A stretch of 64,000 nt of DNA from a virus. The DNA lies in IMG/VR virus record IMGVR_UViG_3300025147_000004; one strand, given 5' to 3'. Each line of letters starts with the position of its first letter. The first letter of the stretch is position 1. Position numbers and translations under genes: made by a program. This document shows, piece by piece, positions 2,206-64,000 of this stretch. The notes below the pieces were generated by a model. That model searched no databases. It was not told where the DNA came from and saw only the letters and a program-made list of their open reading frames with translations.

Positions 2206-2226
2206 CGTATAAATGTATTATATTTG
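2206..2226 (+). promoter_or_regulatory. Bacteroidota-type promoter of the conserved phage family (ATAAATGTATTATATTTG)
   Basis: The -7 box TATATTTG lies at 2219-2226, 22 nt before the ATG at 2249. The extended sequence matches five other copies in the window. Confidence 0.5.
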
Positions 2227-2248
2227 CACTGTACTAAAAACAAAGAAA

Positions 2249-3319: not shown

Positions 3320-3331
3320 TAAATAAACAAA

Positions 3332-35683: not shown

Positions 35684-36187
35684 TTATGATATATTTGGGA
35701 CGGGATTTATTGGAAAATTTAATCTTGCGAATTTGCCATAATATATAATTGCCGCCTCGTCGTAAGCGCGAGCAGCATCTTCCTCTACTTTAAACCGACC
35801 AAGAAATTTTTTCTTTCCATCAACATATATTGATACCTCCCATTTTTTATCTCTCGCAAACCATGATACCCCTTTGTATTTTGATGAGGAATTTTTATCC
35901 TTCTTTCTGTTCATGCCATTCTCGGATGTGGTGCAATGTCTCATGTTTAGTCGCTGATTATTCCATCCGTCTCCGTCCTCATGATCTATCATTGGTTTTT
36001 CTGGATTATCACCCATAATGAGTCGGTGCATCATCTGCATGGTTTGTTTGCCGTTAATTCTAATGCGTCTTACGGCATAAAATGTATTGCCGTCTTTCTG
36101 TGCATACCAATTAAATTGGCTAACCATTTCAAAATCTTCGTCATCAACCAAGGCTACTTGACCTTGTGTTAATTTTATTTCTTGCAT
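35684..36187 (-). CDS. HNH-AP2 homing endonuclease, copy B
   Basis: It shows roughly 55-60 percent identity, estimated by eye, to copies A and C. Motifs include IDHEDGDGWNNQRLNM and the AP2 segment SSKYKGVSW...GRFKVEEDAARAYD. The start is at MQEIKL. Confidence 0.8.
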   Translation of the reverse strand: MQEIKLTQGQVALVDDEDFEMVSQFNWYAQKDGNTFYAVRRIRINGKQTMQMMHRLIMGDNPEKPMIDHEDGDGWNNQRLNMRHCTTSENGMNRKKDKNSSSKYKGVSWFARDKKWEVSIYVDGKKKFLGRFKVEEDAARAYDEAAIIYYGKFARLNFPINPVPNIS

Positions 36188-36285
36188 TACTAAATGTTTA
36201 AAACAACAAACCCTCAAACTCAGCTTGCGGACTAAGAATGAAGGTTTGCTAAAAAATATTATCAATTATGCCGCAAGACATGCGA
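36188..36285 (-). promoter_or_regulatory. structured 98-nt leader of HNH-AP2 copy B (interleaved stems plus terminator-like hairpin)
   Basis: S1 pairs 36271-36277 with 36224-36230 (7 bp). S2 pairs 36239-36250 with 36205-36216 (12 bp including 2 G-U), followed by a U-rich tract. Confidence 0.4.
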
Positions 36286-36317
36286 CAAATATACGAAATA
36301 AAATACACACTACCAAA
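36286..36317 (-). promoter_or_regulatory. promoter of HNH-AP2 copy B
   Basis: The -7 box TATATTTG is at 36286-36293 and the -33 box TTTG at 36314-36317 (20-nt spacer). A block of about 36 nt is 31/36 identical to 43781-43816. Confidence 0.5.
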
Positions 36318-41402: not shown

Positions 41403-42911
41403 TTATATTGGCGGTAAATCATATTCCAGTTCTCCCTGCTTCGGCACACTCGGCTTTACCAGCGTTTTCCCCATGCACTTGTAAGCCACAACCCTGCTAA
41501 ACTCTTCCTTACTCATCGTTAGCAATCCTTGAGAAGCCAACCGATCCCATTCGCCAATCATAGGCATTAGGTAGTAGGTGTAAGTCATTCCGTCCGACTT
41601 CCGCTCCTTGATAAAGTTCTTCTCCTTCAGCTTTTCGGCAAACTTCACATTCGAGAAGGCATTGTAGCCGGATGCCTTACAATAATCTACGTACTGTTTG
41701 TACAGATCCTTGGCGGTTATTTGCATCGGGGCGTGGGTCTTGTAGACTGGGATGTTGTAGTATTCCTGATCCTCTATGAATTTCAATATCGAGTTGCTAT
41801 TCATCTCATACTCAATTACTTTGTCCTTAACTGCCTCTGGTTCAACTATCTTGTATCCGTTTGCTTTTATGCGAGCATATCCAGTTAAAAACCAATTAAG
41901 GATACCGCTTAATTCTTCCCGTAATTCGGTATGAAGATTGATGTTTTGCCTTTCCTCTGAGATGGTTACATTAAATGGTACAATTAAAAAACGCCTGAAG
42001 TAGCCTTTGGTGTAGTCGCTGGTAGCTGGTAATTCATTAGTATTTGCGATCAATAATGGAATATGTTTTACAAGAAACGGATCTCGGTAAATATGCCTTG
42101 CTTGGATTGGTTCGCCGGAGATTAGCTTCTTTACGATAGAGCCTGAAATTTCCTTGCTTTTTAATTCCGAGCAGTAGTTTATTGTTTTACCTTCGATTGC
42201 CGCGATGTTGTAGTCCTTGGAATTACCGGAAACTAAATCGCCAATTTCGTAAGTTGTTGTATTATCGTCGCCAACCATCTGAGTCACAGTCTCAAATACA
42301 ACTGACTTTCCATTACTACCTCCTCCGATCAACACGAGCATTCGCTCCAATTTCGATTTACTCCGATCTGCATATGCCAGCGAAATCATCTCCTGAAAAG
42401 CATTTCTTATCAACTCATCCGGCAAAACCTCCTCGATAAACTTCATCCATTTAGGACACTTCGCTTCTGGATCATAATCGTAATTAATTCTGTTGATCAC
42501 GAAATGCTCTGGTGAAAATGGGCTGACCTGCATTGTGTCAGCGTCAAGTACGCAGTTGGTAAAACATAATTTTCTTCTCGTTAGTTTAAAATCCCTCCGG
42601 CTAAGGTTTCTCCAAATCGTTTTCGTCATGCTTTGGAACTCCTTGTTTAGTATTCCATCAGAAACTTGCAGGTATCTCATAGATGTAAATATCGCACTTT
42701 CCAGATCATCCTTATCGACAAGAATGTAGCTGCGGCCATCAAACCACACGCTGTTTCCGGCATACTTGTAGATATTTATCTTAGATAGCGTATCATAATA
42801 TAACAATGCTATACCGCCAACCTTCTCAACCTTAGCTTCCCTACAAAGTATGTCTTTTAACCGTTCCCTGTCGATAGATGTTATTAGCTGTTCACTAAGT
42901 CCATCTGTCAT
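41403..42911 (-). CDS. D5/P4-family primase-helicase (SF3 NTPase)
   Basis: Walker A is LIGGGSNGKSV. LLIANTNELP and GYFRRFLIVPFN are typical of phage/plasmid primase P4-family C-terminal domains. Confidence 0.75.
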   Translation of the reverse strand: MTDGLSEQLITSIDRERLKDILCREAKVEKVGGIALLYYDTLSKINIYKYAGNSVWFDGRSYILVDKDDLESAIFTSMRYLQVSDGILNKEFQSMTKTIWRNLSRRDFKLTRRKLCFTNCVLDADTMQVSPFSPEHFVINRINYDYDPEAKCPKWMKFIEEVLPDELIRNAFQEMISLAYADRSKSKLERMLVLIGGGSNGKSVVFETVTQMVGDDNTTTYEIGDLVSGNSKDYNIAAIEGKTINYCSELKSKEISGSIVKKLISGEPIQARHIYRDPFLVKHIPLLIANTNELPATSDYTKGYFRRFLIVPFNVTISEERQNINLHTELREELSGILNWFLTGYARIKANGYKIVEPEAVKDKVIEYEMNSNSILKFIEDQEYYNIPVYKTHAPMQITAKDLYKQYVDYCKASGYNAFSNVKFAEKLKEKNFIKERKSDGMTYTYYLMPMIGEWDRLASQGLLTMSKEEFSRVVAYKCMGKTLVKPSVPKQGELEYDLPPI

Positions 42912-43184: not shown

Positions 43185-43673
43185 TTATTTATTCTCTGAG
43201 AAATTTAACCATGCAAATTCACCAAAATATTTTATCGCTGCCACGTCATAAGCGCGAGCTGCATCTTCTTCAATAATGAAGTATCCTAAAAACCCCATTT
43301 TGCCGTTTACCCTTATTTGCGCCAACCATTTTTGTCTTGACTCAATCCAACATACTCCTTTGTATTTAGAAGAAGAATTTTTACGAGATTTTTGATTCAT
43401 TTGATTTTGCCTACGCGTACATGGTCTTAAATTTAACCGCCAATTATTGCAACCGTCCCCATCCCAGTGGTCTACACACGGCTTTAGCGGATTATCGCCC
43501 ATTATAAATCTGTGCATATACTGAAGAATACGTTTGCCGTCAATGGTAACGGCTCTTTCTGCATAGAATATATTTCCAATTTTGTGTGCGCACCATTTGT
43601 GTTGATTTACCCTCTCGAAATCTTCATCATCCACATACGCCACTTTTCCTTGTGTTAATTGTATTTCCCGCAT
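43185..43673 (-). CDS. HNH-AP2 homing endonuclease, copy C
   Basis: The HNH region is VDHWDGDGCNNWRLNL. The AP2 domain is SSKYKGVCWIESRQKWLAQIRVNGKMGFLGYFIIEEDAARAYD. Confidence 0.8.
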   Translation of the reverse strand: MREIQLTQGKVAYVDDEDFERVNQHKWCAHKIGNIFYAERAVTIDGKRILQYMHRFIMGDNPLKPCVDHWDGDGCNNWRLNLRPCTRRQNQMNQKSRKNSSSKYKGVCWIESRQKWLAQIRVNGKMGFLGYFIIEEDAARAYDVAAIKYFGEFAWLNFSENK

Positions 43674-50013: not shown

Positions 50014-50070
50014 CTTTTAACATTCTTTAACTAAATTAATTAGGTACGTTATAGGCATTTATTATCTTTG
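50014..50070 (+). promoter_or_regulatory. rightward early promoter, copy 1 of a paralogous pair
   Basis: The 28-nt block CTTTTAACATTCTTTAACTAAATTAATT is followed by TATCTTTG at 50063-50070. Confidence 0.5.
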
Positions 50071-52755: not shown

Positions 52756-53019
52756 ATGAAAAACATAGTAATAGACACAAATAGCGCGATTTATTTAGTA
52801 AATTTTCAATTTAGTTATCCAAACGGAAAATTTATAGTTACCGGATCAGGAATTATGGATTGTTTAAAGGAACACGATAAACACGGGATTGACTCAATAA
52901 AACAGTTTGATCCTTCAGACGGCAAATTTAAAAGAGTATCGCGGGACGTTATACGCAAAAGTTTAGACTACGATACTGAAGTTGATTTGTATTTAAAAAA
53001 TCATTACTGGTTCAAGTAA
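52756..53019 (+). CDS. hypothetical early protein
   Basis: 87-aa ORF. Confidence 0.45.
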   Translation: MKNIVIDTNSAIYLVNFQFSYPNGKFIVTGSGIMDCLKEHDKHGIDSIKQFDPSDGKFKRVSRDVIRKSLDYDTEVDLYLKNHYWFK

Positions 53020-53020
53020 A

Positions 53021-53048
53021 CGAACAACGAACAACGAACAACGAACAA
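53021..53048 (+). repeat. perfect tandem heptamer array (CGAACAA)x4
   Basis: The array starts 2 nt after the stop at 53019. It is followed by CGCGAAA and two AAGTATAAACC copies (53054-53064 and 53074-53084). Confidence 0.9.
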
Positions 53049-53100
53049 CGCGAAAGTATAAACCCGCAAATAAAAGTATAAACCAATAAAAAGTAAAGAA

Positions 53101-53250
53101 ATGAACACTATAACTTATCATAGAAACCCAACAAAATCAGAAATCAAATTTGGCGAAGGTGCAATTCATTATTGTGATTTTGATTTAAACATTTGTGTTA
53201 AACCTGACGGCAATTATAAAAATGGATTATATCACCTTATGATGGTTTAA
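53101..53250 (+). CDS. unannotated 49-aa ORF
   Basis: Hand translation gives MNTITYHRNPTKSEIKFGEGAIHYCDFDLNICVKPDGNYKNGLYHLMMV. Confidence 0.3.
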   Translation: MNTITYHRNPTKSEIKFGEGAIHYCDFDLNICVKPDGNYKNGLYHLMMV

Positions 53251-53360
53251 GGTATTACTATTAAACGAACAAACCCCGTCTCTACAAAACAAGGTAGTGA
53301 ATCGAATAACTGACGGGACAAACGGCAAAATTGCCACAACAAATAATAAAAGCAAACGAT

Positions 53361-53804
53361 ATGAAAAATTTAATCGAATTTAACGGGATATTTTTTACAG
53401 AAGGAACAAGCGAACAAGTAAAACAAATTATCAGTAACCATGTAGGCAATAGAAACGAACGGTTAAGAGTATATTATGGAGATGCAACAACTGGTAAAAG
53501 TTGGCACGAAGAAAATGATATTTGTGGTTATATTGGTAGGAGTACAGGAACACGAAAAATACCTTTATTAATCGCAAATAACCGTTCTATAGGTGGTGAT
53601 TCTATTCTTTGTGATTGTATTGTTAAAATCGTTCGTATCAGTGATAAACGGGTTTTATACGTTCATCCTACCTTCAATAACGGTTTATTTGTCGTAGATG
53701 GCTATAGGGTGACTATAGATGGTTTAACTCATGCAAACTGTAAAAGCGAACAATCAGCGCAAAGGTTAGCCGATTTTATGAACGGGAAAAGGAATAGTAA
53801 GTAA
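53361..53804 (+). CDS. hypothetical early protein
   Basis: The start was moved to MKNLIEF, the first ATG. Confidence 0.45.
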   Translation: MKNLIEFNGIFFTEGTSEQVKQIISNHVGNRNERLRVYYGDATTGKSWHEENDICGYIGRSTGTRKIPLLIANNRSIGGDSILCDCIVKIVRISDKRVLYVHPTFNNGLFVVDGYRVTIDGLTHANCKSEQSAQRLADFMNGKRNSK

Positions 53805-53814
53805 TAGCGAACAA

Positions 53815-54009
53815 ATGACACATACAAGCGAACAAGCAAAGCGAACGAACACAAATATAAATACTGGAGTAGATCATTCCAGAGTACAACAAAACAAGCC
53901 GTGTTTCTTCGTAAACTGGACTGACAAAAATGGCGAAAATCAATACAAGTTTTTTGAATTTGTGTTTATAATGGAGAGTTTTAGAATTAGATTAATAAAC
54001 GAACAATAA
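53815..54009 (+). CDS. hypothetical early protein
   Basis: 64-aa ORF. Confidence 0.4.
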   Translation: MTHTSEQAKRTNTNINTGVDHSRVQQNKPCFFVNWTDKNGENQYKFFEFVFIMESFRIRLINEQ

Positions 54010-54017
54010 GCGAATAA

Positions 54018-54191
54018 ATGAAATGCAATAACACAAAACTAGAGAAAATACAAAATAGAACAAGCGAATTACACTCTATTTTAATTGACATTAAAAGTAA
54101 TTGGAATCTTATTCCAATAACTGAGCAAACAAAGCTAAGGCGATCTATATTGTCGGACATTAATTCATTACTAAATAAAATTAACAAATAA
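54018..54191 (+). CDS. unannotated 57-aa ORF
   Basis: Hand translation begins MKCNNTKLEKIQNRTSELHSILIDIKSNWNLIPITEQTKLRRSILSDINSLLNKINK. It is preferred over the antisense ORF 53987..54187. Confidence 0.4.
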   Translation: MKCNNTKLEKIQNRTSELHSILIDIKSNWNLIPITEQTKLRRSILSDINSLLNKINK

Positions 54192-54195
54192 AAAC

Positions 54196-54456
54196 ATGAA
54201 AAACATTAGAGTATCTGAATATATTCATAAGTTTAGAATTGACAGATTAAGTGATTGTACATCAATGAATGATGGGTTTAACATGATTGTATTTGCAGAT
54301 AATAACGAATTTAATAAAATAAATTGGTGTATTCGAGATGGGATAATTATAGAGACTTATCTATTTACTTTTAAAACAATACCGGAAGGGGAGTATAAAT
54401 TAATGTATCTTAATGAGGTATATCTTGATCTTGATACAATGATGCATAATATTTAA
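54196..54456 (+). CDS. hypothetical early protein
   Basis: 86-aa ORF. Confidence 0.45.
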   Translation: MKNIRVSEYIHKFRIDRLSDCTSMNDGFNMIVFADNNEFNKINWCIRDGIIIETYLFTFKTIPEGEYKLMYLNEVYLDLDTMMHNI

Positions 54457-54460
54457 TCAA

Positions 54461-54703
54461 ATGAAAAAGAAACAAACCCCCTCAACCATCATCGAACAAA
54501 TACGCGTTAATAGTAACGTAGCGTATGAAGCCAATTCTATTAGCGAACGACTTGAACAATTCTGGTATAATATGCCTGAGTATGTCGAACAGGAAACGAA
54601 CGACCGGATACAATTACTCAGAAAAGAACTGGATGAGATTGTAAGAATCGAATATAAGGCGAACGAAGAGTTAATGAACGAATTTAAACAATTAAGCAAA
54701 TAA
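54461..54703 (+). CDS. hypothetical early protein
   Basis: 80-aa ORF. Confidence 0.45.
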   Translation: MKKKQTPSTIIEQIRVNSNVAYEANSISERLEQFWYNMPEYVEQETNDRIQLLRKELDEIVRIEYKANEELMNEFKQLSK

Positions 54704-54729
54704 AATACACAAATGAACAAAACGAACAA

Positions 54730-54915
54730 ATGACAATGAAGGAAATTTTATCTTCGCTATGTGTTTATGATAATAGAAATCCTGATTGTATTTATGACCC
54801 TGAAGATATTCAAGACCACGAAAATGATATTAAAAAAGGCAAAACATGTTATTGTGATAATTGTTTTCATGGACGAACCGAAACAGCTATAAGTATGATT
54901 AATATGCCCATGTAA
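54730..54915 (+). CDS. Cys-rich mini-protein, probably the 5' part of a SEC-C-motif gene
   Basis: 61 aa with CYCDNC. A SEC-C motif follows in the +1 frame. Confidence 0.4.
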   Translation: MTMKEILSSLCVYDNRNPDCIYDPEDIQDHENDIKKGKTCYCDNCFHGRTETAISMINMPM

Positions 54916-54964
54916 AAGCGGAATGAAGTATAAAAATTGTTGTGGCAAAAGTGTAGCCAAATGA
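54899..54964 (+). other. out-of-frame SEC-C metal-binding motif (CPCKSGMKYKNCCG)
   Basis: The +1 frame relative to 54730..54915 reads LICPCKSGMKYKNCCGKSVAK*. It has no start codon of its own, and its TGA overlaps the next gene's ATG at 54961. Confidence 0.5.
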
Positions 54965-55188
54965 AACAACTCCTACTCTCAGCCCTAACCATACGCGAAC
55001 GCCTGATCCGAACGAATAAAAGCCATATTCGTGGTTGTAAGGTTGAACAATTTATGGCAAACCTTCGCTACTGGCTCGAACAAGGAACAGATCCGCTATA
55101 TATAGTCGAACGATGGGATAAACAGATACGAACGATTTTAACAAGTAATTTTATAAACAAGTACGAACAATTAAAACAAAGGAAATGA
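54961..55188 (+). CDS. hypothetical early protein
   Basis: The start is at MKQLLLS. Confidence 0.45.
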   Translation: MKQLLLSALTIRERLIRTNKSHIRGCKVEQFMANLRYWLEQGTDPLYIVERWDKQIRTILTSNFINKYEQLKQRK

Positions 55189-55421
55189 AAACGAAATTAG
55201 TCCTACATGAATGTAAAAACTACGAAATAACAGAGGAAAACCCGCGCGATTTTAAAATAGGTGACATGTTCTATTTTAGTTGGCATGGAATGAACGACAT
55301 TCAAGAAATAGCCGACGAACGAATTTTGGCAGAGGTAAATGGCGAAGTAAAGGAGAATCCAGATAGTATTGATTTGGTATTTAATTTTTGGAGGAGTGTT
55401 CGTAAAGTAATAAAACATTAA
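55185..55421 (+). CDS. hypothetical early protein
   Basis: 78 aa with an ATGA overlap to the upstream gene. Confidence 0.45.
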   Translation: MKTKLVLHECKNYEITEENPRDFKIGDMFYFSWHGMNDIQEIADERILAEVNGEVKENPDSIDLVFNFWRSVRKVIKH

Positions 55422-55530
55422 TCATGCCCACCCATTACAAAACGAAACGTGCAGGACTTGTAAAAATGAGGAATGCGCTCGAACAACTAAAACAGAAGAA
55501 AGTAAATAAACCATTAATAATAAAAGAGAA

Positions 55531-55707
55531 ATGAAACTATCAGCTTACACAATCGCAAAAAATTGTACTGACATAACAGATTTGAGAGATGGAATAAAAG
55601 AGATTGAAGATTATTTTTCAAAAACAACAATGCCAAAGCGAACTAAATCATCATACATTCGTTATTTTAAACTTCACGAAAAACTTAAAAAATATGAAAT
55701 CAATTAG
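55531..55707 (+). CDS. unannotated 58-aa ORF
   Basis: Hand translation begins MKLSAYTIAKNCTDITDLRDGIKEIEDYFSKTTMPKRTKSSYIRYFKLHEKLKKYEIN. Confidence 0.35.
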   Translation: MKLSAYTIAKNCTDITDLRDGIKEIEDYFSKTTMPKRTKSSYIRYFKLHEKLKKYEIN

Positions 55708-56017
55708 TATTGGCAAATACAGCATAACATTGCTTAATAATCAAGATGTCTGTGATCCATTAAGTAAAAATAGGATTTCAAATTGTGGATTATTGCAAAT
55801 AAAGGATATTACAGAAGATTCGTGTGCAAAAATGGTAGCTAAAATTGATCAAGGAGAGAGGTATTCTCCAGATAGCCGATACATTTTTTTAACAGAATAT
55901 GATAAAAAAGATCAATTGCAATGCGGCACAGCGAGGGCAGCAGTTATGCGAGTGATAATAGATAAGCTAAAACCTTTAAACTTAAGTGAATATATAAAAA
56001 TAAACCTGAGCAAATGA
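55694..56017 (+). CDS. hypothetical early protein
   Basis: The start was moved to MKSISIG. Confidence 0.4.
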   Translation: MKSISIGKYSITLLNNQDVCDPLSKNRISNCGLLQIKDITEDSCAKMVAKIDQGERYSPDSRYIFLTEYDKKDQLQCGTARAAVMRVIIDKLKPLNLSEYIKINLSK

Positions 56018-56238
56018 CAACTCTAAAAAATCAATCCCTCCGATTAAACCGGAGTATAAACCGAACAATTCGGAGTATAAAGCGAACGATCAGCCCCGAA
56101 CACATTGTAATTATTTTGGCGGTATTTAGCCTTTTATCGCTGATATTCCTAATGTGGATCGAATCATTTTGGGCAGTACTGCCTATCATTGGAATGGCTT
56201 TAATAATATTAATAATTACTAATAACGAACGACAATGA
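56014..56238 (+). CDS. small membrane protein with RSI(N/K)RTI repeat
   Basis: 74 aa with the TM segments IVIILAVFSLLSLIFLMWI and LPIIGMALIILIIT. Confidence 0.45.
   Translation: MTTLKNQSLRLNRSINRTIRSIKRTISPEHIVIILAVFSLLSLIFLMWIESFWAVLPIIGMALIILIITNNERQ
56050..56091 (+). repeat. adjacent 21-nt tandem duplication
   Basis: CGGAGTATAAACCGAACAATT is followed by CGGAGTATAAAGCGAACGATC (18/21 identical). Each copy carries AGTATAAA plus CGAAC. Confidence 0.85.
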
Positions 56239-56528
56239 AAACATTAATTATCACAGGAATTGTATTTACAAGTTTGTTTTATACGCTTGCATTGCTTTGG
56301 TTTTGGCGGAATTGGAACGAACCGCATCCCGTTGATTGGAATGAGGAGTTTATTGCCTTCCTGAGCGAAAAGGGAGTTTACTGGCTTTATCAACCAAAAC
56401 CGAACGACTGTAACCCGAACGAATATGTTTTGCAGATGTCAGCATATAATGGACGCAACTGTTATTGGAGGAAATTGAATGATGAATGGTTGGAGAGGAT
56501 TGAGAAAATTAATATTAATAATAAATAA
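56235..56528 (+). CDS. small membrane-anchored protein
   Basis: 97 aa with an N-terminal TM segment (LIITGIVFTSLFYTLALLWFW). Confidence 0.45.
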   Translation: MKTLIITGIVFTSLFYTLALLWFWRNWNEPHPVDWNEEFIAFLSEKGVYWLYQPKPNDCNPNEYVLQMSAYNGRNCYWRKLNDEWLERIEKININNK

Positions 56529-56529
56529 G

Positions 56530-56985
56530 ATGGGATCATTAACAATTTTTACAGAAAATCAAACAAGCAGTGGCCGGAATAGGCTGGAGGCTTTTTATTT
56601 GGGGAAACGACTCTACACAGGAAGAATATTGGCAACAAATTTACTCACAGGAAAAACCACACATAAACGAAGAGGAGGACTAATTATGAGACTATACACA
56701 CCACCATCCGCACCAGATTTGATGCGAATAAATATCAAAAGATCAGGCGAATCAACAGCACACATTCCGGTCATAGAAGCTACGCAATGGCAGTTAATGT
56801 CTTGGATACAAAAGATTATTGCGTCTCAAAATTTAAGCATATTTGCCAACGGACACCGACTAACTATTGAGGTCAGGGAATCTATTGGGGGTATTAATGG
56901 CAAGGTTATGAGCGTTTCTCTCTTTGGGATGTCAGTAAGACAGGCAGAGAAGCTAATATTGGAAGAATTAACGAAAATTAACTAA
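56530..56985 (+). CDS. hypothetical early protein
   Basis: The start was moved to MGSLTIF. Confidence 0.4.
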   Translation: MGSLTIFTENQTSSGRNRLEAFYLGKRLYTGRILATNLLTGKTTHKRRGGLIMRLYTPPSAPDLMRINIKRSGESTAHIPVIEATQWQLMSWIQKIIASQNLSIFANGHRLTIEVRESIGGINGKVMSVSLFGMSVRQAEKLILEELTKIN

Positions 56986-57047
56986 AATAGATTAGGAATT
57001 AACGAATAAAAGTAATACATTTGTATAATTAATTAAACAAAAAGGAT

Positions 57048-57248
57048 ATGAAAACAGCAACAGATTACACGATTGGAGATAAAGTGGTCATTAAAGCCAA
57101 TGGTAATACATCAAAAGTTACTCATGGATTTACTAAAGGAGAGGTGGTAATAATAACAAAATTGTTTCCAGATCATTATAGAGCCGATTCGGCTACGGAT
57201 TACTGGTGGGTAGACGATCAAGATATATTTGGGAGGGCTACGCTATGA
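57048..57248 (+). CDS. hypothetical early protein
   Basis: 66-aa ORF. Confidence 0.45.
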   Translation: MKTATDYTIGDKVVIKANGNTSKVTHGFTKGEVVIITKLFPDHYRADSATDYWWVDDQDIFGRATL

Positions 57249-57571
57249 CAACAACCCTAATACTCCCGAACGAATCCTTCCTAAGCGAAGGCATTCTTCT
57301 AATTTGCAAACAAGCAACGAATGGCTGCCAAGGATGCAGTAGAGCAAACAGAAACGACTGCGACAGGTTTCTGTGTAGTCAAGTTCACAGGTCGGATTTC
57401 AGATCGGTTATATTCGTAGAAACCCGATCAGAAATAATAGCCGGAAAGTTGGTGGAGATGGTAGCGAACGAGGGATGTGCGAAGTGTGCCTTTGCATCGA
57501 ACGACGAAGAATCAGAGCCATGTAGGGGATGTATGGGAAAAACTATGTATAAAGAAATAAGGAGAAATTGA
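57245..57571 (+). CDS. Cys-rich protein
   Basis: The start is at MTTTLIL with an ATGA overlap. Multiple Cys clusters are present (CQGCS, CDRFLC, CAKCA, CRGC). Confidence 0.45.
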   Translation: MTTTLILPNESFLSEGILLICKQATNGCQGCSRANRNDCDRFLCSQVHRSDFRSVIFVETRSEIIAGKLVEMVANEGCAKCAFASNDEESEPCRGCMGKTMYKEIRRN

Positions 57572-57572
57572 A

Positions 57573-57854
57573 ATGAACGACGAGAAAATAAAGGAAGCAG
57601 CAAGAGAATACCGAGATAATAAAATACATTCGCTATTGGATGACCATTTCGATGCATTCATTGCCGGAGCTATCAGTAATAGCGCAAAAGAATACTGGCA
57701 GAGGGGGATGTATTCGGAAGAGGAATTTAAATTACTGTCACGAGAATCGTATTACAGAGGCGGAAATGATCAATTGGATAGGGATAGAAATGGTGTAGAT
57801 AAACTACCAGACATGATGTTCGAGTCTTGGTATAATCAAAACAAAAAGAAATAA
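57573..57854 (+). CDS. hypothetical early protein
   Basis: 93-aa ORF. Confidence 0.45.
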   Translation: MNDEKIKEAAREYRDNKIHSLLDDHFDAFIAGAISNSAKEYWQRGMYSEEEFKLLSRESYYRGGNDQLDRDRNGVDKLPDMMFESWYNQNKKK

Positions 57855-58189
57855 TGAACAACGAACAAGAACAGGTACAGGGTGAACAACCCATGCCCGA
57901 ACGAGATGGTATAGAAATAATAGACATTGGCGAACCCGAATTGACAGAGGTAGATCCGGCAGTTATTGGGCAGTTTAAGCGAAAATATTACCTCACCGCC
58001 GAGCAGCAAAGAATTATTGACATCCTCGGCGAATATCAGAAGGCTTACATTAGTGTATCTAGTAGACAAGGGAATTTTCTGGTATTGAATGGAAACGTTA
58101 CCGATCATGTTCGGTCGAATACGATAACAGCTTTAGTAAAGAAAGGATATTTACAGGCGAACGGAAAGAACAGACTCAAATTAATTTAA
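57854..58189 (+). CDS. possible winged-helix DNA-binding protein
   Basis: 111 aa. The C-terminal segment NTITALVKKGYLQANGKNRLKL looks like a wHTH recognition helix and wing. This is a weak call. Confidence 0.3.
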   Translation: MNNEQEQVQGEQPMPERDGIEIIDIGEPELTEVDPAVIGQFKRKYYLTAEQQRIIDILGEYQKAYISVSSRQGNFLVLNGNVTDHVRSNTITALVKKGYLQANGKNRLKLI

Positions 58190-58201
58190 TAAATAAAGAA
58201 A

Positions 58202-58732
58202 ATGGCAGAAGAATTTCCACATTGGAGAAGGGGCGGATCACTCCTACATATTGGAGTTGAGGTGTTACCGGAAGGTAGGGATATAACAGTCGTGATAGAT
58301 CATATTGTCCTGAATGAAAAAGAGAATGTAGGAGGAGTTGAATTAGAAAAGTTTGTGGCGTACTTTAAGCCAAACCCGTACTTTAAACTTCCGAAACTAT
58401 TGGTTGTAAAGGATAAACAGCGACTGATTAAAATGATCGGCGGCGACGAACGAGGATTATGTAAGATTAAAGATTTGGCAGTAATTCTAACGAGCGAAAT
58501 AGATAAGCGAGGGCCAGAAGGGAAAGGGCCATGTTTGCGGATTAGTTCAATCGTGCCAAAACAGATCGAACCAGAAAAGCCAATAGTAAAGCAACCCCTA
58601 ACGCTCACGTCGGAAAAGTATGAAGGTTTAAAGAAGTGGCTCTCGGAGACAGGAACGCTTACGGGGCTTCTGAAAGCATATGAACCGGATGAGGCATGTT
58701 TAGTTGAACTTAGAAAGATAAAGGGGGTATAA
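58202..58732 (+). CDS. hypothetical protein
   Basis: 176-aa ORF. Confidence 0.5.
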   Translation: MAEEFPHWRRGGSLLHIGVEVLPEGRDITVVIDHIVLNEKENVGGVELEKFVAYFKPNPYFKLPKLLVVKDKQRLIKMIGGDERGLCKIKDLAVILTSEIDKRGPEGKGPCLRISSIVPKQIEPEKPIVKQPLTLTSEKYEGLKKWLSETGTLTGLLKAYEPDEACLVELRKIKGV

Positions 58733-58733
58733 G

Positions 58734-59003
58734 ATGACACAAGAAGAATTTTTACAAATGGAATCGAGTCAAAGACAGCATTTTCAGGTTATGGAACATC
58801 AATCCAAAATGAATTTTTTGGTTGAGTCCGAAGAAATAAATCTGTTTTCAATCCTAAAGCCTAAAATTAGCATTGACGGAAATCAATATTGTGTGCTTTA
58901 TGGCGAAGATTTACAATCGGGAGTTGCAGGATTCGGAGACACTCTAATGTTGGCTATTTACGACTTCAATAAAAACTTCCATAAACCAGTAAGAAATGTC
59001 TAA
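58734..59003 (+). CDS. hypothetical protein
   Basis: 89-aa ORF. Confidence 0.45.
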   Translation: MTQEEFLQMESSQRQHFQVMEHQSKMNFLVESEEINLFSILKPKISIDGNQYCVLYGEDLQSGVAGFGDTLMLAIYDFNKNFHKPVRNV

Positions 59004-59220
59004 AAAATTCACCGACGACCCATCCATAACCGACCGCCTCGAAGAACTTCTGCACCTTCACAGACATTACGTTATGGAGAATATGGAAGAAGCAGATCCG
59101 GCAGTAGATGGACAAAAGACCAGATTCTATAAGTTTAAATGCTTTATAATTTGGGGGCATTTGCCGAACAAGAATGGGGTATGTAAAAGATGTGGGAAAC
59201 AAATACGGATAAGCAAATGA
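58996..59220 (+). CDS. hypothetical protein
   Basis: 74-aa ORF. Confidence 0.45.
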   Translation: MSKKFTDDPSITDRLEELLHLHRHYVMENMEEADPAVDGQKTRFYKFKCFIIWGHLPNKNGVCKRCGKQIRISK

Positions 59221-59387
59221 CAAAGAAACAAGACAGAGAAGCCCAGAGGTTAATAAATGAAAGGATGGTTGTTGAATATATTCTTGAAACTAAAAGAAGG
59301 TTTGGTAATAATGTATTCTTTGATCCGAATTTCCCCACAGGAGACATTGATATTCCAATAGAATTTGAAGTACCCAAAACAAAATAA
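59217..59387 (+). CDS. hypothetical protein
   Basis: The start was moved to MTKKQD, giving an ATGA overlap. Confidence 0.4.
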   Translation: MTKKQDREAQRLINERMVVEYILETKRRFGNNVFFDPNFPTGDIDIPIEFEVPKTK

Positions 59388-59393
59388 ACCGAT

Positions 59394-60176
59394 ATGACAA
59401 AAGAAGAATTATGGCTAAAAAAGAGGTGTGGCCGACCTACGTCATCAGAAAATAAGACACTATTTGTGGGTGGGTCGCGTCCGGCTACGGATGATGAGTT
59501 GCGAATTTATAAACTAATCAATCCTAAGTCCACACGTAAAACAACTGATATAGAATTTGGTAGTACGGCATTAGATTATTTTTATGAGTTGTCTTGGGAG
59601 CGCGAATCTGGTATCCCCACATACACACCAAGTAACAGGAATTTTGAATGGGGAAAGCAGCAGGAGCCTTATGCGGTCAAGTGGCTGATTGTCAATCATC
59701 CAGAGTTCGTTGTTAGGCACTGTAGTTCTGACGACTTCGACGACATAGTATTCAATGTTGCTGAATGTGGGTTGGGCGACAGCCCCGACATTTACTACCG
59801 GAGAGTCGATGAAGTTACAGAAAACGTAGGAGAGATAAAATGTGTAATGGGTGGCGCGAAACTAAAGCGTATAAAAGAAATGTCGAAAGAGGAGGCTCGC
59901 GTAGAACATGAATATCAGTTTGCAGGACATTTCATTGGAAAGCCGGACGCTGTTAAATTATTGTACGTGGCGTACCTCGGACAAAACGATGACGACCCCA
60001 ACGACACCCTTGATCCATTAGACCCATCCAGAGGAATCATATTCGAATACGACCGCTCCGAGTTTCAGGATCTGATTGAGCAAATAGAAGCGAAAGTCAG
60101 TCATGTGATGGCGTTTTTGGCAGATGTAGATGCAGGTAAGTGCCGCGTACGTGACATAAACACATGGAAGCCATGA
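59394..60176 (+). CDS. YqaJ/lambda-exonuclease-like recombination exonuclease
   Basis: The motifs are WLKKRCGRPTSSE, WGKQQEPYAVKW and GDSPDIYY...VGEIKC (the PD...ExK core). Confidence 0.6.
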   Translation: MTKEELWLKKRCGRPTSSENKTLFVGGSRPATDDELRIYKLINPKSTRKTTDIEFGSTALDYFYELSWERESGIPTYTPSNRNFEWGKQQEPYAVKWLIVNHPEFVVRHCSSDDFDDIVFNVAECGLGDSPDIYYRRVDEVTENVGEIKCVMGGAKLKRIKEMSKEEARVEHEYQFAGHFIGKPDAVKLLYVAYLGQNDDDPNDTLDPLDPSRGIIFEYDRSEFQDLIEQIEAKVSHVMAFLADVDAGKCRVRDINTWKP

Positions 60177-60361
60177 AAGAGCGCGAACCAGGCTTCTATT
60201 GGGTTCTTCCGCCATTGACTAATTTTTGGGAAGTGTGCCAATACGACGCTAATTGGAATGAGTGGAGAAGAAATGGCGACTGGGGGTGGATTGACGGCGA
60301 CTTCGATGAGATTTATGATTCGGTAAAAATTAAGAGAAATGCGCGCCAAGAGGACAACTAA
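60173..60361 (+). CDS. hypothetical protein
   Basis: The start is at MKEREPG with an ATGA overlap. Confidence 0.4.
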   Translation: MKEREPGFYWVLPPLTNFWEVCQYDANWNEWRRNGDWGWIDGDFDEIYDSVKIKRNARQEDN

Positions 60362-60710
60362 AAAATACCCAAGTGGGTGGAAGCTGACAAGATCCGATCT
60401 CCTCGGCATCCATCCATCTCACCAGAGGATAGCAGACTCGATGGTGATGTACATGAACGGAACGAACCGACACGACATCCGCGCATTGGAACGGGCAGTT
60501 ATGAACGAATATGAGGAATGCAAAGTAATGAGTAGATTTGATTGTAAGGCGGTTCGCTTTAAGTGGGTGTGTATCAGCAAACAGCACGTCTCACCCTACA
60601 AAGAACGATGGGCATTTGCGGTCTATTCCGGCAATCGGTTGCTGTCTGCTGTGTTTGAGAGTGAAAATTTGAAAGGGTTTGGAGTTGAGAGAGGAGATTA
60701 TCAGCCATGA
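60339..60710 (+). CDS. hypothetical protein
   Basis: 123-aa ORF. Confidence 0.45.
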   Translation: MRAKRTTKKYPSGWKLTRSDLLGIHPSHQRIADSMVMYMNGTNRHDIRALERAVMNEYEECKVMSRFDCKAVRFKWVCISKQHVSPYKERWAFAVYSGNRLLSAVFESENLKGFGVERGDYQP

Positions 60711-61099
60711 GAAAATATACACCTCAAATAACTAAGATAGACAACTTCGATAGGATTGAGAATGGTTCGCATTATGTAATGCTGGCTTGGCGTGACAATC
60801 CGTATCTATCCGAGCGCAATACTCTTGCCGGACATCTCATTAACTATGCTTGGGATTTATGCGAGAGGATGGTAAAACCACTTAGCTTAGATAGGTTCTT
60901 TGAGTTATTAGAAGAGCAATCAGCCATATTCATGGAAACAAATCGTATAGACAGCAAATACATCCTAAAGAAAGTTCTGCTAACCAAGCGAAAGACTTAC
61001 AACTTGCCACTGTATAAGATCGAGATTGGCAGTTCGATAGAAACACTTGCGGCAATATTTTACCAATCGGATTTAACATATAATAGAGAGAAGAGATGA
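60707..61099 (+). CDS. hypothetical protein
   Basis: 130-aa ORF. Confidence 0.45.
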   Translation: MRKYTPQITKIDNFDRIENGSHYVMLAWRDNPYLSERNTLAGHLINYAWDLCERMVKPLSLDRFFELLEEQSAIFMETNRIDSKYILKKVLLTKRKTYNLPLYKIEIGSSIETLAAIFYQSDLTYNREKR

Positions 61100-61602
61100 A
61101 AACTATAAGAGAATTAAGAGGGACGCTTCGGTTTAATCCTCATGAAATAAACAGTATGGTTTATTATTTTAAAACAGAAAAAATTGATTGGGATGTATTT
61201 CTTCCATCAAGAGGGAAAAATCTGCAACGAGATTTTGTGTGGACTTTAGATCAGAAGCGTGAAATTATTTGGTCTATCCTTATGCGAAGGAGTATTCCAA
61301 GAATGGCGGTCGTATATACCATCGGAAATGTTTATCAGATTATTGATGGTAAGCAGCGTCTTTCTTCTATGATTGATTTTATTGACGAAAAATTTACGCT
61401 CTTGGTGGATGGCGAGGAATATTTATTTAGTCAGATACCCCATGATTATCAGGTAATAATTTCTCATTACGCATTCCCATATTATGTGGTAAATGAAAAC
61501 TTCGAAGGTGAAATTACTGATGAGGATAAAATAAATTGGTTTAAGTTCATTAATTTTGCCGGAACGCCACAAGAGAAGGAGCATCTAGATTCATTACTAT
61601 GA
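61096..61602 (+). CDS. DUF262 (ParB/GmrSD N-terminal-like) domain protein
   Basis: IIDGKQRLSSMIDFI is the DGQQR-type signature of DUF262. 168 aa. Confidence 0.55.
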   Translation: MKTIRELRGTLRFNPHEINSMVYYFKTEKIDWDVFLPSRGKNLQRDFVWTLDQKREIIWSILMRRSIPRMAVVYTIGNVYQIIDGKQRLSSMIDFIDEKFTLLVDGEEYLFSQIPHDYQVIISHYAFPYYVVNENFEGEITDEDKINWFKFINFAGTPQEKEHLDSLL

Positions 61603-63173
61603 CTCCGCAGATCCCCCAGCTTCGTCCATATCAGGAAGGCACGGAGAGTTCTGCGAGAAATGCCTTCAAAAAACATAAGCACGTTCTCTTAGTCTCAGCA
61701 ACAGGATCGGGAAAGACATTCATATTTAGCAGTATAGTTCGCTCCTCTCTTAGTAAGGGATACAAGGTGATGATCGTTTCTAATCGGGCAAAACTACTGA
61801 AGCAGTCCGGTCAGTCGCTGACATTGTTTGGCATAGACGCTGAATACATTTCCGCGAAGCATCGGGTAGTTCCGGTCAATAACTGCATAGTCGCCACAGC
61901 TCAGACGCTTCAGAGGCGTTTCGATTTGCCGGAATACCAAGAGTTGTTTAAGTCGATTGACCTATGGATATTCGATGAAGCCCACCTTCAGGATTTCAAT
62001 TTCCTTTTAGAATCTGGGCTGCTTGATAAGAAATGGTTGCTCGGAGTAACTGCAACCCCGAAGCGATCCGGTAAAATGCGCCAGATGGGACTGGATTATG
62101 AAGTAATGGTTGAGGGCTTGTCCGTACAAGCTGGGATAGATTTGGGATTCTTAGTTCCGGCTCGAACTTTCACCTTGGATGCGCCAGACCTTAGTTCTGT
62201 TTCTATCGACCCGATTCGAGGTGACTACAATGGCAAAGACCTATATAAAGCTTTCAATACTGCCAAAGTTTATGGAGGCGTAATTAGTGAATTTAAAAAG
62301 CTGTGTAATAATGAGAAAACTATGTGCTTTTGCTCCTCACAGATTCATGCAATTCAAACATGCATCGAGTTTAATAATGCCGGGATAAGCAGTAAGTTCG
62401 TAGTTTCTGGATTAAAGAAGGATGACGAAGATTATAATTTGCTTGAAGATAACTTGCATTTGACTGGACGGAAAGAAGATATTGAGGATGAATTTGATCG
62501 TGGTTCATTTGTTGTATTATGTAACGTGGCAATCTACACCACTGGCTATGACTGCGTGAGTATCAGGAATATAGTACTTTTAAGAGCTACATTATCTGAA
62601 ACATTATGGGATCAGATGTGCGGTAGGGGTGGTCGTATTATGCCAGATGGGAGTAAATCTTTTTTTCGAATACTGGACTTTGGTGGAAATGTGGCGAGGC
62701 ATGGACTTTACGAAAGGAAGAAAGTGAATAGTTTGTGGCATGATTATCACCAAGGAAGTGGGGTAGTTATGACAAAAGAGTGCCCACCGCTAGAAACCGA
62801 TTGCGAAGGAAAGCATGGATGCGGCAGGCTTATCCACATCTCATATCCCAAATGCTGTTTCTGTGGGTATATTTTCAAAACCAAAGAAGAGATTCGAAGT
62901 ATAGAACTCACCGAGATTATTGGTGGAGAGTTTAAATTTAAGAATATGTCAGCAACCCAACTAAAAGCCTACGCCGAGCTGAATGGTAATAGTATGCGCT
63001 GGGTGTGGCGAATGCTATGGATCGGCAACGATGAGAAAGATTTCAGAAAAGGGATGAGAGAACTATCATACGACAACAAGTTCATCTACCGCCAAATGAT
63101 GATCTATAAATCAGAGGATGCGAAAAAAGCAAAAGATTTATTAATAAAAGAGCAAAATAAATTGGCAAAATAG
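61599..63173 (+). CDS. SF2 DEAH-box helicase with C-terminal Cys cluster
   Basis: The motifs are motif I (SATGSGKT), motif II (FDEAH), motif III (TATP) and motif VI (QMCGRGGR). A Cys cluster follows (CPPLETDCEGKHGCG...CCFCG). Confidence 0.8.
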   Translation: MTPQIPQLRPYQEGTESSARNAFKKHKHVLLVSATGSGKTFIFSSIVRSSLSKGYKVMIVSNRAKLLKQSGQSLTLFGIDAEYISAKHRVVPVNNCIVATAQTLQRRFDLPEYQELFKSIDLWIFDEAHLQDFNFLLESGLLDKKWLLGVTATPKRSGKMRQMGLDYEVMVEGLSVQAGIDLGFLVPARTFTLDAPDLSSVSIDPIRGDYNGKDLYKAFNTAKVYGGVISEFKKLCNNEKTMCFCSSQIHAIQTCIEFNNAGISSKFVVSGLKKDDEDYNLLEDNLHLTGRKEDIEDEFDRGSFVVLCNVAIYTTGYDCVSIRNIVLLRATLSETLWDQMCGRGGRIMPDGSKSFFRILDFGGNVARHGLYERKKVNSLWHDYHQGSGVVMTKECPPLETDCEGKHGCGRLIHISYPKCCFCGYIFKTKEEIRSIELTEIIGGEFKFKNMSATQLKAYAELNGNSMRWVWRMLWIGNDEKDFRKGMRELSYDNKFIYRQMMIYKSEDAKKAKDLLIKEQNKLAK

Positions 63174-63182
63174 TTTGTGGTG

Positions 63183-63203
63183 TGAATAAATATATTATCT
63201 TTG
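63183..63203 (+). promoter_or_regulatory. conserved-family promoter (AATAAATATATTATCTTTG)
   Basis: The -7 box is at 63196-63203, 35 nt before the ATG at 63239. Confidence 0.5.
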
Positions 63204-63238
63204 CATTATATAAATCAAACATTAAAAAAATAACAATC

Positions 63239-63826
63239 ATGGGATGCGACATTCATTTATTTACAGAAAGAAAAATGTCTATTAACTTAGAAGAAAAATG
63301 GGTTAATATTGACAATTGGAAACTAAACCCCTATTATGAGGAAAATAACGAAGACAGAGAAGTTTTGTATAGTATAAATCCAGCATACAGCAGTCGAGAT
63401 TATAATCTGTTTTCGATGTTAGCTGACGTAAGAAATAGAAGCGAAAACAAATACATTTCGGAGCCAAAAGGATTGCCAGAAGATGTTAGTGAAGTAATAA
63501 AGAAAGTGAGCGAATCGTGGGGCGATGACGGACACTCACATTCGTTTTTTACAATGGGGGAGCTATATGATTTTCAAAAAGAAAACAGCACACAAAAATA
63601 TTTTGGACTCGTTGATTCCGAAGGCAGAGATAAGATAAATAAAGGAGAAATGCCTGAATGGTGGTGTCAAGGAAGTAGCAGTCCATTAATCAAAATGGAG
63701 TGGACTCGCGAAAACGATACATTAAATAATTTTATCAGTACTCTTGAGTCTCACTTTAAATCGCAATACTATGATAAGTCAGTGGATTCGGAAAAGTTCA
63801 GGATTGTATTTTGGTTTGACAATTAA
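63239..63826 (+). CDS. hypothetical protein
   Basis: The start was moved to MGCDIHLF, downstream of the promoter. 195 aa. Confidence 0.5.
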   Translation: MGCDIHLFTERKMSINLEEKWVNIDNWKLNPYYEENNEDREVLYSINPAYSSRDYNLFSMLADVRNRSENKYISEPKGLPEDVSEVIKKVSESWGDDGHSHSFFTMGELYDFQKENSTQKYFGLVDSEGRDKINKGEMPEWWCQGSSSPLIKMEWTRENDTLNNFISTLESHFKSQYYDKSVDSEKFRIVFWFDN

Positions 63827-63850
63827 TCAATATAAATAAAACATCAGCAA

Positions 63851-64000
63851 ATGAAATTACTAAAGATCGAAATTAAGGGGATTGCGAAACATGCAGATAC
63901 TACAATCGTAATCGACAAACCCTTGACGGTGTTGTTCGGGGACGTTGAAAACGGAAAGACCACAGTACTAAATGCCGTTCGTTGGGGCATGGGATGTATT
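63851..64000 (+). CDS. N-terminus of an SMC/SbcC/RecF-like ATPase (continues right of the window)
   Basis: MKLLKIEIKGI...LTVLFGDVENGKTTVLNAVRW gives an N-terminal Walker A in the SbcC/Rad50 arrangement. Confidence 0.55.
   Translation, partial: MKLLKIEIKGIAKHADTTIVIDKPLTVLFGDVENGKTTVLNAVRWGMGCI

Follow-up and report, generated by a model that had tools for sequence, protein, structure and literature searches.

The stretch of DNA analysed here (the window) comprises 64,000 nucleotides (nt) of the IMG/VR virus record IMGVR_UViG_3300025147_000004, and its gene content identifies it as DNA of a tailed phage. It contains a block of small genes whose sense strand is densely marked with the pentamer CGAAC, continued in most copies as CGAACRA (R, A or G). 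Genes throughout are open reading frame (ORF) calls and not curated annotations. The block and the features on which the analysis turns are as follows.

53021..58571, plus strand: the motif block, sense strand of about 20 small co-oriented ORFs, with about 8 CGAAC per kb.
53021..53048, plus strand: four head-to-tail copies of CGAACAA, directly after the stop of ORF 52756-53019; the sharp left edge of the block.
57854..58189, plus strand: penultimate block gene; its product, of 111 amino acids (aa), is a candidate for the reader of the motif.
58202..58732, plus strand: gene of a 176-aa protein, at the distal block end in every lineage and present also in relatives without the motif.
59165..59171, plus strand: a stray single CGAACAA, 0.6 kb past the block.
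60339-60710, plus strand: gene of a 123-aa protein, just upstream of a DEAD/ResIII helicase.
60707-61099, plus strand: gene of a 130-aa protein, just upstream of the same helicase.

An exact count finds 45 CGAAC and four GTTCG on the plus strand between 53021 and 58571. This agrees with a first-pass annotation, which had claimed 45 and about four, and all of its 38 example positions carry the word. By the same count, the plus strand of the whole window holds 61 CGAAC and 40 GTTCG, and outside the block, which makes up about 9% of the genome, there are 16 CGAAC across the other 58 kb and 36 GTTCG; the motif is thus sparser elsewhere, as the annotation had supposed. Base composition predicts 4.0 copies of CGAAC in the block and an order-1 Markov model 5.8 (z 16.3), and CGAAC is the top over-represented 5-mer of the block. 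A maximal-order Markov model, in which the sub-words of CGAAC itself raise the expectation, predicts 25.1 copies for the 45 seen (z 6.1). Small plus-strand genes begin at about 50.3 kb and continue through the rest of the window; the first 3 kb of the same operon (50.3-53.0 kb) are equally A-rich and contain two CGAAC, which equals the expectation.

The copies are distributed over all reading frames and the spacers. By the ORF-based gene calls, 22 of them are placed as xxC-GAA-Cxx, nine as xCG-AAC and seven as CGA-ACx, and seven are intergenic, a near-identical result to the 21, 9, 7 and 8 given in the annotation. Against the 38 intragenic copies, shuffling synonymous codons inside single genes yields 16.6 +/- 3.0, shuffling them across all block genes as one pool 8.7 +/- 2.7, and shuffling the order of codons 5.8 +/- 2.4, so that the excess in block genes reaches a z of 7 to 14 across the codon-aware shuffles. 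The continuation to CGAACRA, which had been noted for most copies, is present in 34 of the 45. On both strands of the window together, CGAACRA occurs 38 times, as against 14.0 +/- 3.9 in shuffles, and 34 of these 38 lie on the plus strand between 53021 and 58453. Because CGAAC occurs in all three frames and in spacers and survives the codon-aware shuffles, the signal is one at the nucleotide level, far beyond chance, codon usage or amino-acid composition. The annotation's claim of a strand-specific signal in the nucleic acid itself therefore holds, and the enrichment stays under both the Markov and the codon and composition models by which it had proposed to examine it.

Relatives of this phage, all from metagenomes, were found by using the exonuclease gene (59394-60176) and the 123-aa gene as anchors. 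Seven further lineages, with an exonuclease identity of 47-57% or a 123-aa protein identity of 71%, contain an equivalent block, and the block extends over 5-9 kb across lineages. The ratios of CGAAC to GTTCG in the equivalent blocks are listed here.

L005: 47:3.
L006 (same contig as L054): 41:2.
L008 (near-identical to L009): 44:0.
L010: 13:2.
L071: 20:0.
L072: 33:0.
L193: 48:0, in its first 8 kb.

The polarity follows the sense strand, with a ratio of 243:11 over seven lineages (window included) and 48:0 in the eighth. CGAAC is the top or a near-top 5-mer in the block of each relative, with an order-1 z of 10-14 in five of the seven and of about 4-7 in L010 and L071. When the coding sequence of all eight lineages is pooled, 209 CGAAC are found, compared with 102.7 in the synonymous shuffle (z 13.7) and 45.7 in the codon-order shuffle (z 24.2); since these lineages share ancestry, P values from the pool overstate independence. 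GTTCG occurs 10 times in the eight blocks for 12.9-15.4 expected, a depletion that is not significant. The gene content of the block is mosaic, most genes having no homologue in most other lineages, and all blocks are motif-rich. No other part of the genome is as mosaic as the block, which adjoins the exonuclease/helicase module. The same phage was recovered at 100% identity in at least three other assemblies, and because the four contigs compared are identical, microdiversity is uninformative on purifying selection.

No CGAAC enrichment was observed in seven more distant lineages with an exonuclease identity of 31-38% (L007, L011, L012, L058, L060, L061 and L063), nor in the Parabacteroides phage PF672P2, a distant cultured relative. 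No other comparable polar word was found in these distant relatives, save a weak excess of YGAACGA in L011. As judged from these genomes, the enrichment of CGAACRA is clade-specific. Of a different kind is the pair CCGGA/TCCGG, over-represented on both strands throughout the locus of L012 and of a further distant relative, L013, with an order-1 z of up to 9.7.

Viral contigs were also scanned for the motif at large. Three motifs within 80 nt occur at no fewer than 120 loci, mostly coding tandem repeats in unrelated viruses, and in L186, L184 and L113, which show dispersed strand bias among the matches listed, CGAAC is not among the over-represented 5-mers. A scan for tandem heptamers returned chance matches and an unrelated hsdS-like gene. 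This gene, in L047 (IMGVR_UViG_2881717282_000001) and unrelated to the phage analysed here, contains six tandem ACGAACA on the minus strand at about 611-650; it looks like a gene for Type I restriction specificity (HsdS-like) whose two halves resemble each other, and a change in copy number of the 7-nt repeat would shift its frame. A Bacteroidaceae contig from a metagenome-assembled genome (MAG), L051, contains in its first 5 kb 78 overlapping CCCCC matches, which indicate long poly-C tracts and may reflect an assembly artefact or a homopolymer region.

The form of the motif was derived from an alignment of the 243 sense-strand copies of seven lineages (the window and six relatives). The information is confined to the five core bases and the next two positions: position +5 is A in 59% and G in 32% of the copies (R in 91%), and position +6 is A in 79%, with CGAACAA accounting for 46% and CGAACGA for 28% of all copies. 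The core itself is strict. In the window block, CGNAC has A in 45 cases and the other bases in 1, 2 and 2, CNAAC has G in 45 cases and the others in 11, 2 and 4, and CGAAN has C in 45 cases and the others in 14, 8 and 19, despite C being the rarest base, so that one-base variants of the core are about 2 to 45 times rarer than CGAAC. Since the flanks of CGAACRA show no further context and no partner half-site, its footprint is that expected of a single-strand or monomer reader. The Cheo box of Gram-positive LexA, CGAAC-RNRY-GTTCG, has the same pentamer and a following purine as its half-site, but the CGAAC copies here are without inverted partners, GAAC-N4-GTTC palindromes having 0 matches in the 64 kb, and for this reason they are not LexA operators.

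Tandem Repeats Finder attributes 4.6 of the 45 copies to a tandem array of period 7 at 53019-53050. Repeats of at least 20 nt, or a longer unit carrying the motif, were not found, and the copies are independent. A family of tandem or dispersed long repeats was rejected on the small number of tandem copies and the lack of information outside positions 0 to +6. The spot in L006 that is homologous to the sharp left edge contains two CGAACAA copies, and the right limit of the enrichment falls inside the 176-aa gene. Repeats of other kinds are found in the blocks of two relatives, namely sixteen copies of an in-frame 12-bp tandem repeat (GTCGGCAGC followed by TTG or AGA) inside a block ORF of L008 (3818-4010), and a (TAA)n microsatellite of about 24 copies in a block spacer of L006 (5427-5500).

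Motif density is higher in spacers (11.4 per kb) than in ORFs (4.7 per kb). It peaks within the first 10 nt after stop codons (19 sites, 130 genes) and is even along gene bodies. Promoter-proximal spacers carry arrays in L071 (six copies in 133 nt) and L072 (three in 68-80 nt), and in several lineages the density declines toward the distal end of the block. Motif pairs at distances of 4-36 nt occur about twice as often as expected, indicating local clustering; helical periodicity was not found in the spacing. The G+C content is about 32% over 48-56 kb and about 39% over 56-58 kb, with a step up near 56000 inside the block, and motif density is unchanged across it.

Individual sites turn over rapidly. 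When nine orthologous families are aligned by codon, the motif stands at most of its positions in a single lineage, and the other lineages show near-misses such as CGAAT, CAAAC or TGAAC in these columns. New copies frequently come with amino-acid changes, as is seen even for a family of 79-89% amino-acid identity, and block genes without homologues between lineages are equally motif-rich. The first-pass annotation had looked to the conservation of motif positions in related phages. Positions are for the most part not conserved, whereas density and strand are, which points to selection on density rather than to an absence of function. It therefore appears from these alignments that selection acts on local density, such that sites are required in every segment of the transcript or of the DNA.

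Beyond the block, the motif is scarce and, on the sense strand, tends to be avoided. In the window, sense CGAAC is at the codon-aware expectation in every gene group outside the block, and the sense 7-mer occurs once for 5.3-6.4 expected (P ~0.01-0.02); the antisense 7-mer, with one copy for 3.1 expected, does not differ significantly. Six relatives were examined in the genes that follow the block on the same strand: sense CGAAC is found there 16 times for 33.1 expected, a count as low as this being reached in 0 of 300 shuffles, and the sense 7-mer once for 5.1 (P 0.02), compared with three for 4.6 of the antisense 7-mer. As a control, all 1024 5-mers were evaluated in 119 downstream genes (59.7 kb) of seven lineages. 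CGAAC has a ratio of 0.56 (z -2.9, rank 33 among the 1024), whereas GTTCG stands at 1.07 and all CGNNN words together at 0.98; CGAAT (0.94), CGAAA (1.04) and CGAAG (1.12), together with GGAAC, CAAAC and AGAAC, fall between 0.90 and 1.12, and TGAAC is at 0.85. The avoidance is modest but specific to the CGAAC motif and to the sense strand. Packed into one gene set and avoided next door on the same strand, CGAACRA thus behaves like a signal with consequences. The most avoided 5-mers of the downstream genes are different ones: in synonymous shuffles covering L006, L008, L010, L071, L072, L193 and the window from 58740 to 64000, CCTGG/CCAGG, CTAG-containing and GGNCC words have ratios of 0.08-0.3, and the avoidance of CCWGG, CTAG and GGNCC is a typical footprint of restriction-site avoidance in this phage clade.

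The wider gene content of the window is that of a tailed phage with a replication module.

2213-3319, plus strand: tyrosine integrase.
19191-24266: tape measure protein.
28610-29755: major head protein.
31251-32822: large terminase.
33235-34746: portal.
36310-37848, minus strand: T5 A1-like 'DNA transfer' protein (PHROG 1745, E 1e-126).
41403-42911: SF3 helicase of the D5/P4-alpha type, with D5_N, DUF5906 and Pox_D5 domains.
59394-60176: exonuclease-like protein.
61599-63173: DEAD/ResIII helicase.

The nearest cultured phages infect Bacteroidota hosts (Maribacter, Flavobacterium, Bacteroides and Parabacteroides) at less than 50% amino-acid identity, and a megablast search of the block against cultured phages gave no nucleotide match. 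The T5 A1 homologue lies at the distal end of the leftward operon and hence not in a first-entering pre-early position as in T5. The integrase is located within the replication/recombination operon, as it is in L002, L011, L071 and L193, that is, in every lineage whose stretch reached there; no prophage copy or host was found in exonuclease-profile scans of genome (species-representative) and metagenome collections. Two proteins with HNH_3 and AP2 domains, of the homing-endonuclease type, are encoded by genes inserted in the replication operon (35684-36265 and 43185-43673, both on the minus strand), and HNH_3 genes are found at other places in relatives (L008 9686-10000; L071 10298-10870). Among about 40 proteins of the early and replication region that were scanned with Pfam and PHROGs, all block proteins are orphans. 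Rfam detected no family in 48-60 kb, the tRNA scan no tRNA, and a scan for sigma-70-type promoters and terminators remained at chance level. Promoter boxes of the Bacteroidota -7 type (TAnnTTTG) are present at four places.

49631, minus strand: box in the divergent region.
50063..50070, plus strand: box TATCTTTG in the divergent region, about 3 kb upstream of the block.
57016..57023, plus strand: box TACATTTG within the block, in the spacer ahead of ORF 57048-57248.
63196: a further box.

The box at 50063..50070 is likely the start of the rightward early operon. Because the spacer at 57016 and its box are conserved in relatives (L005, L006, L008, L010 and L072), a separate promoter of the host type probably serves the conserved distal part of the block.

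Several spacers of the block contain elements besides the motif.

53049..53100, plus strand: conserved spacer after the tandem array, with CGCGAAAGTATAAACCCGC and then a second AGTATAAAC, before the ATG at 53101.
53262..53345, plus strand: structured intergenic element, with CGAAC, then AAACCCGTC...GACGGGACAAAC, an outer stem CCCGTC/GACGGG and a second 4-bp hairpin.
L005 2959-3045, ~3298-3350 and ~3500-3540: copies of the structured element.
L006 4680-4750: copy of the structured element.
L008 1092-1180 and 1655-1735: copies of the structured element.

Related spacers with the CGCGAAAG hairpin are present in L006, L008 and L072. The structured element, which has no Rfam match, occurs one to three times per block in L005, L006 and L008, and the sequence of its second hairpin varies by lineage with the pairing kept (GGCA/TGCC, GTAC/GTAC, CCGC/GCGG, CTGC/GCAG). 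Read on the minus strand, each of the two hairpins precedes a T-rich run, which gives the element the look of a leftward terminator; it may terminate leftward transcription or act as an RNA element of the early operon. Another word, AGTATAAA(C), recurs in block spacers, often beside CGAAC, both in the window (53055-53084 and 56053-56082, duplicated at 53055/53075 and 56053/56074) and in relatives (L005 ~1810; L008 ~1730 and ~1985; L010 ~1500). It does not match the TAnnTTTG box and may be another regulatory word; it recurs in a few spacers and was rejected as a general partner of CGAAC.

The genes of the 111-, 123- and 130-aa proteins are found in the six relatives compared, save at contig ends, and are absent from the relatives without the motif; L193 stands outside this comparison and carries the 123-aa gene. 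The 111-aa protein has a variable, E/Q-rich N-terminus, which is encoded by motif copies, and a conserved C-terminal domain of 65 aa. AlphaFold models of the 111-aa and 123-aa proteins are of moderate quality (predicted local distance difference test, pLDDT, 72-74; 74 for the 123-aa protein), with a pLDDT of about 90 for the modelled C-terminal domain of the former, in which a helix, three strands, a helix and two strands follow each other. In Foldseek neither model gave a match below E 0.4, and the faint winged-helix-like matches of the 111-aa model are not significant (E >= 0.4). Sequence searches of the PDB with the 111-, 123-, 130- and 176-aa proteins returned nothing meaningful. The link of the 111-, 123- and 130-aa proteins to the motif is correlative only.

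Among known systems, the closest functional analogy is RegB of phage T4, in which a phage factor reads a very short word, GGAG, in many early transcripts and inactivates this class. A concentration of the word in the transcripts of one class, as for RegB and MazF-type enzymes, is also observed here, for 34 of 38 CGAACRA in the window and likewise in the seven related lineages. Unlike CGAACRA, which is located within ORFs in all frames and after stops, GGAG lies mainly in translation initiation regions and is abundant as a Shine-Dalgarno sequence, and no RegB-like protein was detected here with Pfam and PHROGs. MazF interferases read single-strand words of 5-7 nt as well, and local over-abundance singles out particular mRNAs, such as the UACAU sites in Staphylococcus aureus sraP or the UUACUCA sites of MazF-hw; there, however, single cellular genes are concerned and here a multi-gene phage block. 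Pfam and PHROGs scans of the about 40 early and replication proteins revealed no RegB, MazF/PemK or HicA-like endoribonuclease gene. The KOPS and SRS sequences of FtsK and SpoIIIE are oriented short words that direct a process by polarity and density, but they are 8-mers skewed chromosome-wide toward dif, and neither a genome-wide skew nor a link to a translocase was seen here. RegB and MazF thus come closest in function and polar words of the Chi and KOPS type closest in form, but membership in any of these systems is not established. The literature searches turned up no account of a sense-strand heptamer that is restricted to one region of a phage, an early block, and reaches 5-8 per kb there.

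As a tentative reading, we propose that CGAACRA is a strand-specific, cis-acting tag. A phage factor specific to this clade would read it while the sense strand is being transcribed or afterwards, and the block would thereby come under collective control, probably a timed shut-off. The tag would be kept at high density on the sense strand of an accessory (delayed-early) block of small genes, with either the mRNA or the exposed non-template DNA strand as the molecule that is read. The reader would be a protein of the same clade, either the 111-aa protein from the far end of the block or the product of the 123-aa or 130-aa gene. Sites are present in every cistron and in most spacers, so that the exchangeable genes would be controlled as one set, whichever genes it comprises. 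The likeliest form of control is that the block would be switched off or limited once the reader accumulates, for which targeted decay, a block of translation, termination or a roadblock are possible routes. Reading on RNA or on the non-template strand, a phage-encoded reader and a negative direction of the effect are each inferred. The proposed tag would account for the polarity, the single site without partner, the sites in every cistron and spacer, the turnover of sites at a kept density, the clade specificity and the sense-only avoidance elsewhere. Multiple binding sites for a phage regulator had been among the roles considered in the first-pass annotation; this fits the clade-specific enrichment and the co-occurrence with three small proteins, including the product of 57854-58189.

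Several points weigh against such a tag. The motif is lacking both at 50-53 kb, where the rightward operon begins, and in the leftward early operon, which a generic function in early transcripts leaves unexplained. The candidate readers have no domain recognisable as RNA- or DNA-binding in Pfam and PHROGs or, for two of them, in Foldseek. The timing class of the block ('early', 'delayed-early accessory') is deduced from its position, orientation, gene size and host-type promoter boxes. All block genes are co-oriented, so that under a model at the DNA level the match to the sense strand would arise by chance in half of the cases. The depletion elsewhere is modest (P 0.002-0.02) and comes from lineages that are not independent; in the non-block part of the window the 5-mer shows no depletion, and the evidence for it comes from the 7-mer and from the relatives. 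Finally, the predicted accessibility of the sites in RNA, 0.221 compared with 0.198 for composition-matched 7-mers (P 0.024), is a marginal gain in support.

A wider proposal, which we regard as rather doubtful at present, is a 'regulon by word density'. Genes placed in the block would acquire CGAACRA on their sense strand, a small clade protein from the block end would read it on the transcript or the non-template strand and so time or limit their expression without promoters or operators, and genes outside the block would avoid the word. The one-strand heptamer suggests an undescribed way of marking a gene set for common control.

One alternative places the reader on duplex DNA. The sites could be oriented monomer sites for a phage DNA-binding protein, acting as a polar roadblock to RNA polymerase or replication forks or as a one-way loading site for a helicase or initiator, which we consider unlikely. 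The strict 5-bp core with two softer positions has the size of one half-site of a helix-turn-helix or winged-helix protein, the 111-aa candidate has faint winged-helix-like matches, and a polar roadblock would also explain the sense-strand avoidance elsewhere. In favour are also the SF3 helicase with its D5_N, DUF5906 and Pox_D5 domains and the position of the co-occurring 123-aa and 130-aa genes in the replication module just before the DEAD/ResIII helicase. However, nothing ties the SF3 helicase to the motif, the fold matches are not significant (E >= 0.4), the spacing shows no helical phasing, and sites that are spread over 5-9 kb with fast turnover are unlike compact, position-conserved origins or operators. 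The C-terminal domain of P4 alpha binds TGTTCACC iterons; replication-origin iterons for an initiator of the P4 alpha/SF3 type were rejected here on the spread of the sites over 5-9 kb and their turnover between orthologues. Improbable, too, is a Chi-like recombination or protection signal, in which CGAAC, or GTTCG on the opposite strand, would be recognised with polarity by a host AddAB or RecBCD or by the phage exonuclease-helicase and would halt degradation or promote exchange. It would explain the mosaicism of the block, which is the most mosaic part of the genome and adjoins the exonuclease/helicase module, and the motif resembles the Chi sites of RecBCD and AddAB in being short (5-8 nt), strand-polar and over-represented, with density counting more than exact position and with copies that turn over. 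Known Chi sequences are G-rich, unlike the A/T-rich CGAACRA. Moreover, Chi is distributed host-genome-wide and co-oriented with replication, whereas CGAACRA is enriched in a single block of 5-9 kb, about 9% of the genome, in one phage clade and is elsewhere at or below the same-strand expectation; a protective signal should not be avoided. The motif is likewise absent from distant relatives that probably share the host phylum and from the cultured PF672P2, a Bacteroidaceae MAG contig with seven CGAAC on both strands in 17.5 kb is not enriched, and no DNA end is known near the block. The Chi-like or packaging role raised in the first-pass annotation is therefore disfavoured. Sites of the AddAB type comprise 5-7 nt, and the Chi sequence of the Bacteroides fragilis AddAB was unknown as of 2010 (PMC2887965).

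The motif could be a functionless by-product of CGAACAA-type microsatellite expansions or conserved cassette junctions, at which young ORFs arise or which are carried along by exchanged genes. The tandem heptamer at the block edge (four copies, two in L006), the irregular spacer arrays in L071 and L072, the density peak in spacers and right after stop codons, and the high turnover of tiny orphan genes in the block are in accordance with this explanation. Yet old conserved genes (79-89% amino-acid identity) gain lineage-specific copies, often via amino-acid changes, and the in-gene excess over synonymous shuffles holds in eight lineages (z 13.7). The copies occupy all frames at variable spacing without common flanking homology, one-base variants are not elevated as they would be for decaying repeats, and the downstream avoidance on the same strand is not expected from drift; we accordingly give a by-product little chance. 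HinfIII, a Type III enzyme with a site of similar size, recognises CGAAT, and with a 5-bp asymmetric word and an orientation bias of 45:4 one may think of the evasion of orientation-dependent restriction (Type III, Type ISP or MANTIS-like), in which inverted pairs of an asymmetric 5-6-bp site are cut and nearly all sites come to lie in one orientation. In such cases one orientation is lost. Here, one orientation is regionally enriched about 8-fold, with sense copies at 2-4.6 times the codon-aware expectation, the other is undepleted (GTTCG 10 versus 12.9-15.4), and the 36 inverted copies elsewhere in the genome would still form head-to-head pairs, so that this explanation is very improbable. 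For comparison, all 36 EcoP15I sites of T7 share one orientation (36:0), and MANTIS sites are reported to show strand-biased depletion (bioRxiv 10.64898/2026.09.23.753747). Excluded by the counts is the possibility that codon usage or amino-acid composition produced the excess in A-rich genes for small E/Q/N-rich proteins. About half of the intragenic copies are indeed xxC-GAA-Cxx and use the common Glu codon, but the excess survives shuffles that keep the protein and codon usage as well as those that keep the codon content, copies also fall in the other two frames and reach 11.4 per kb in non-coding spacers, and the equally A-rich genes at 50-53 kb are not enriched. Complementarity to the tRNA T-loop, -35 boxes of extracytoplasmic function (ECF) sigma factors, primase sites, integron-like attC sites and phosphorothioation at GAAC were considered as well and dropped without a supporting test.

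The early accessory regions of phages contain host-takeover and anti-defence genes that are constantly swapped, and how the timing of such changing cargo is controlled is poorly understood. A heptamer that marks this accessory block in eight lineages provides a 7-nt ligand for finding the reader protein and a sequence signature for this class of genes in uncultured Bacteroidota phages. If the motif were a signal for a helicase-nuclease of the host, it would be a candidate Chi sequence of a Bacteroidota host, for which we found none reported. A 'regulon by word density', if true, would represent a new viral control of horizontally shuffled cargo genes.

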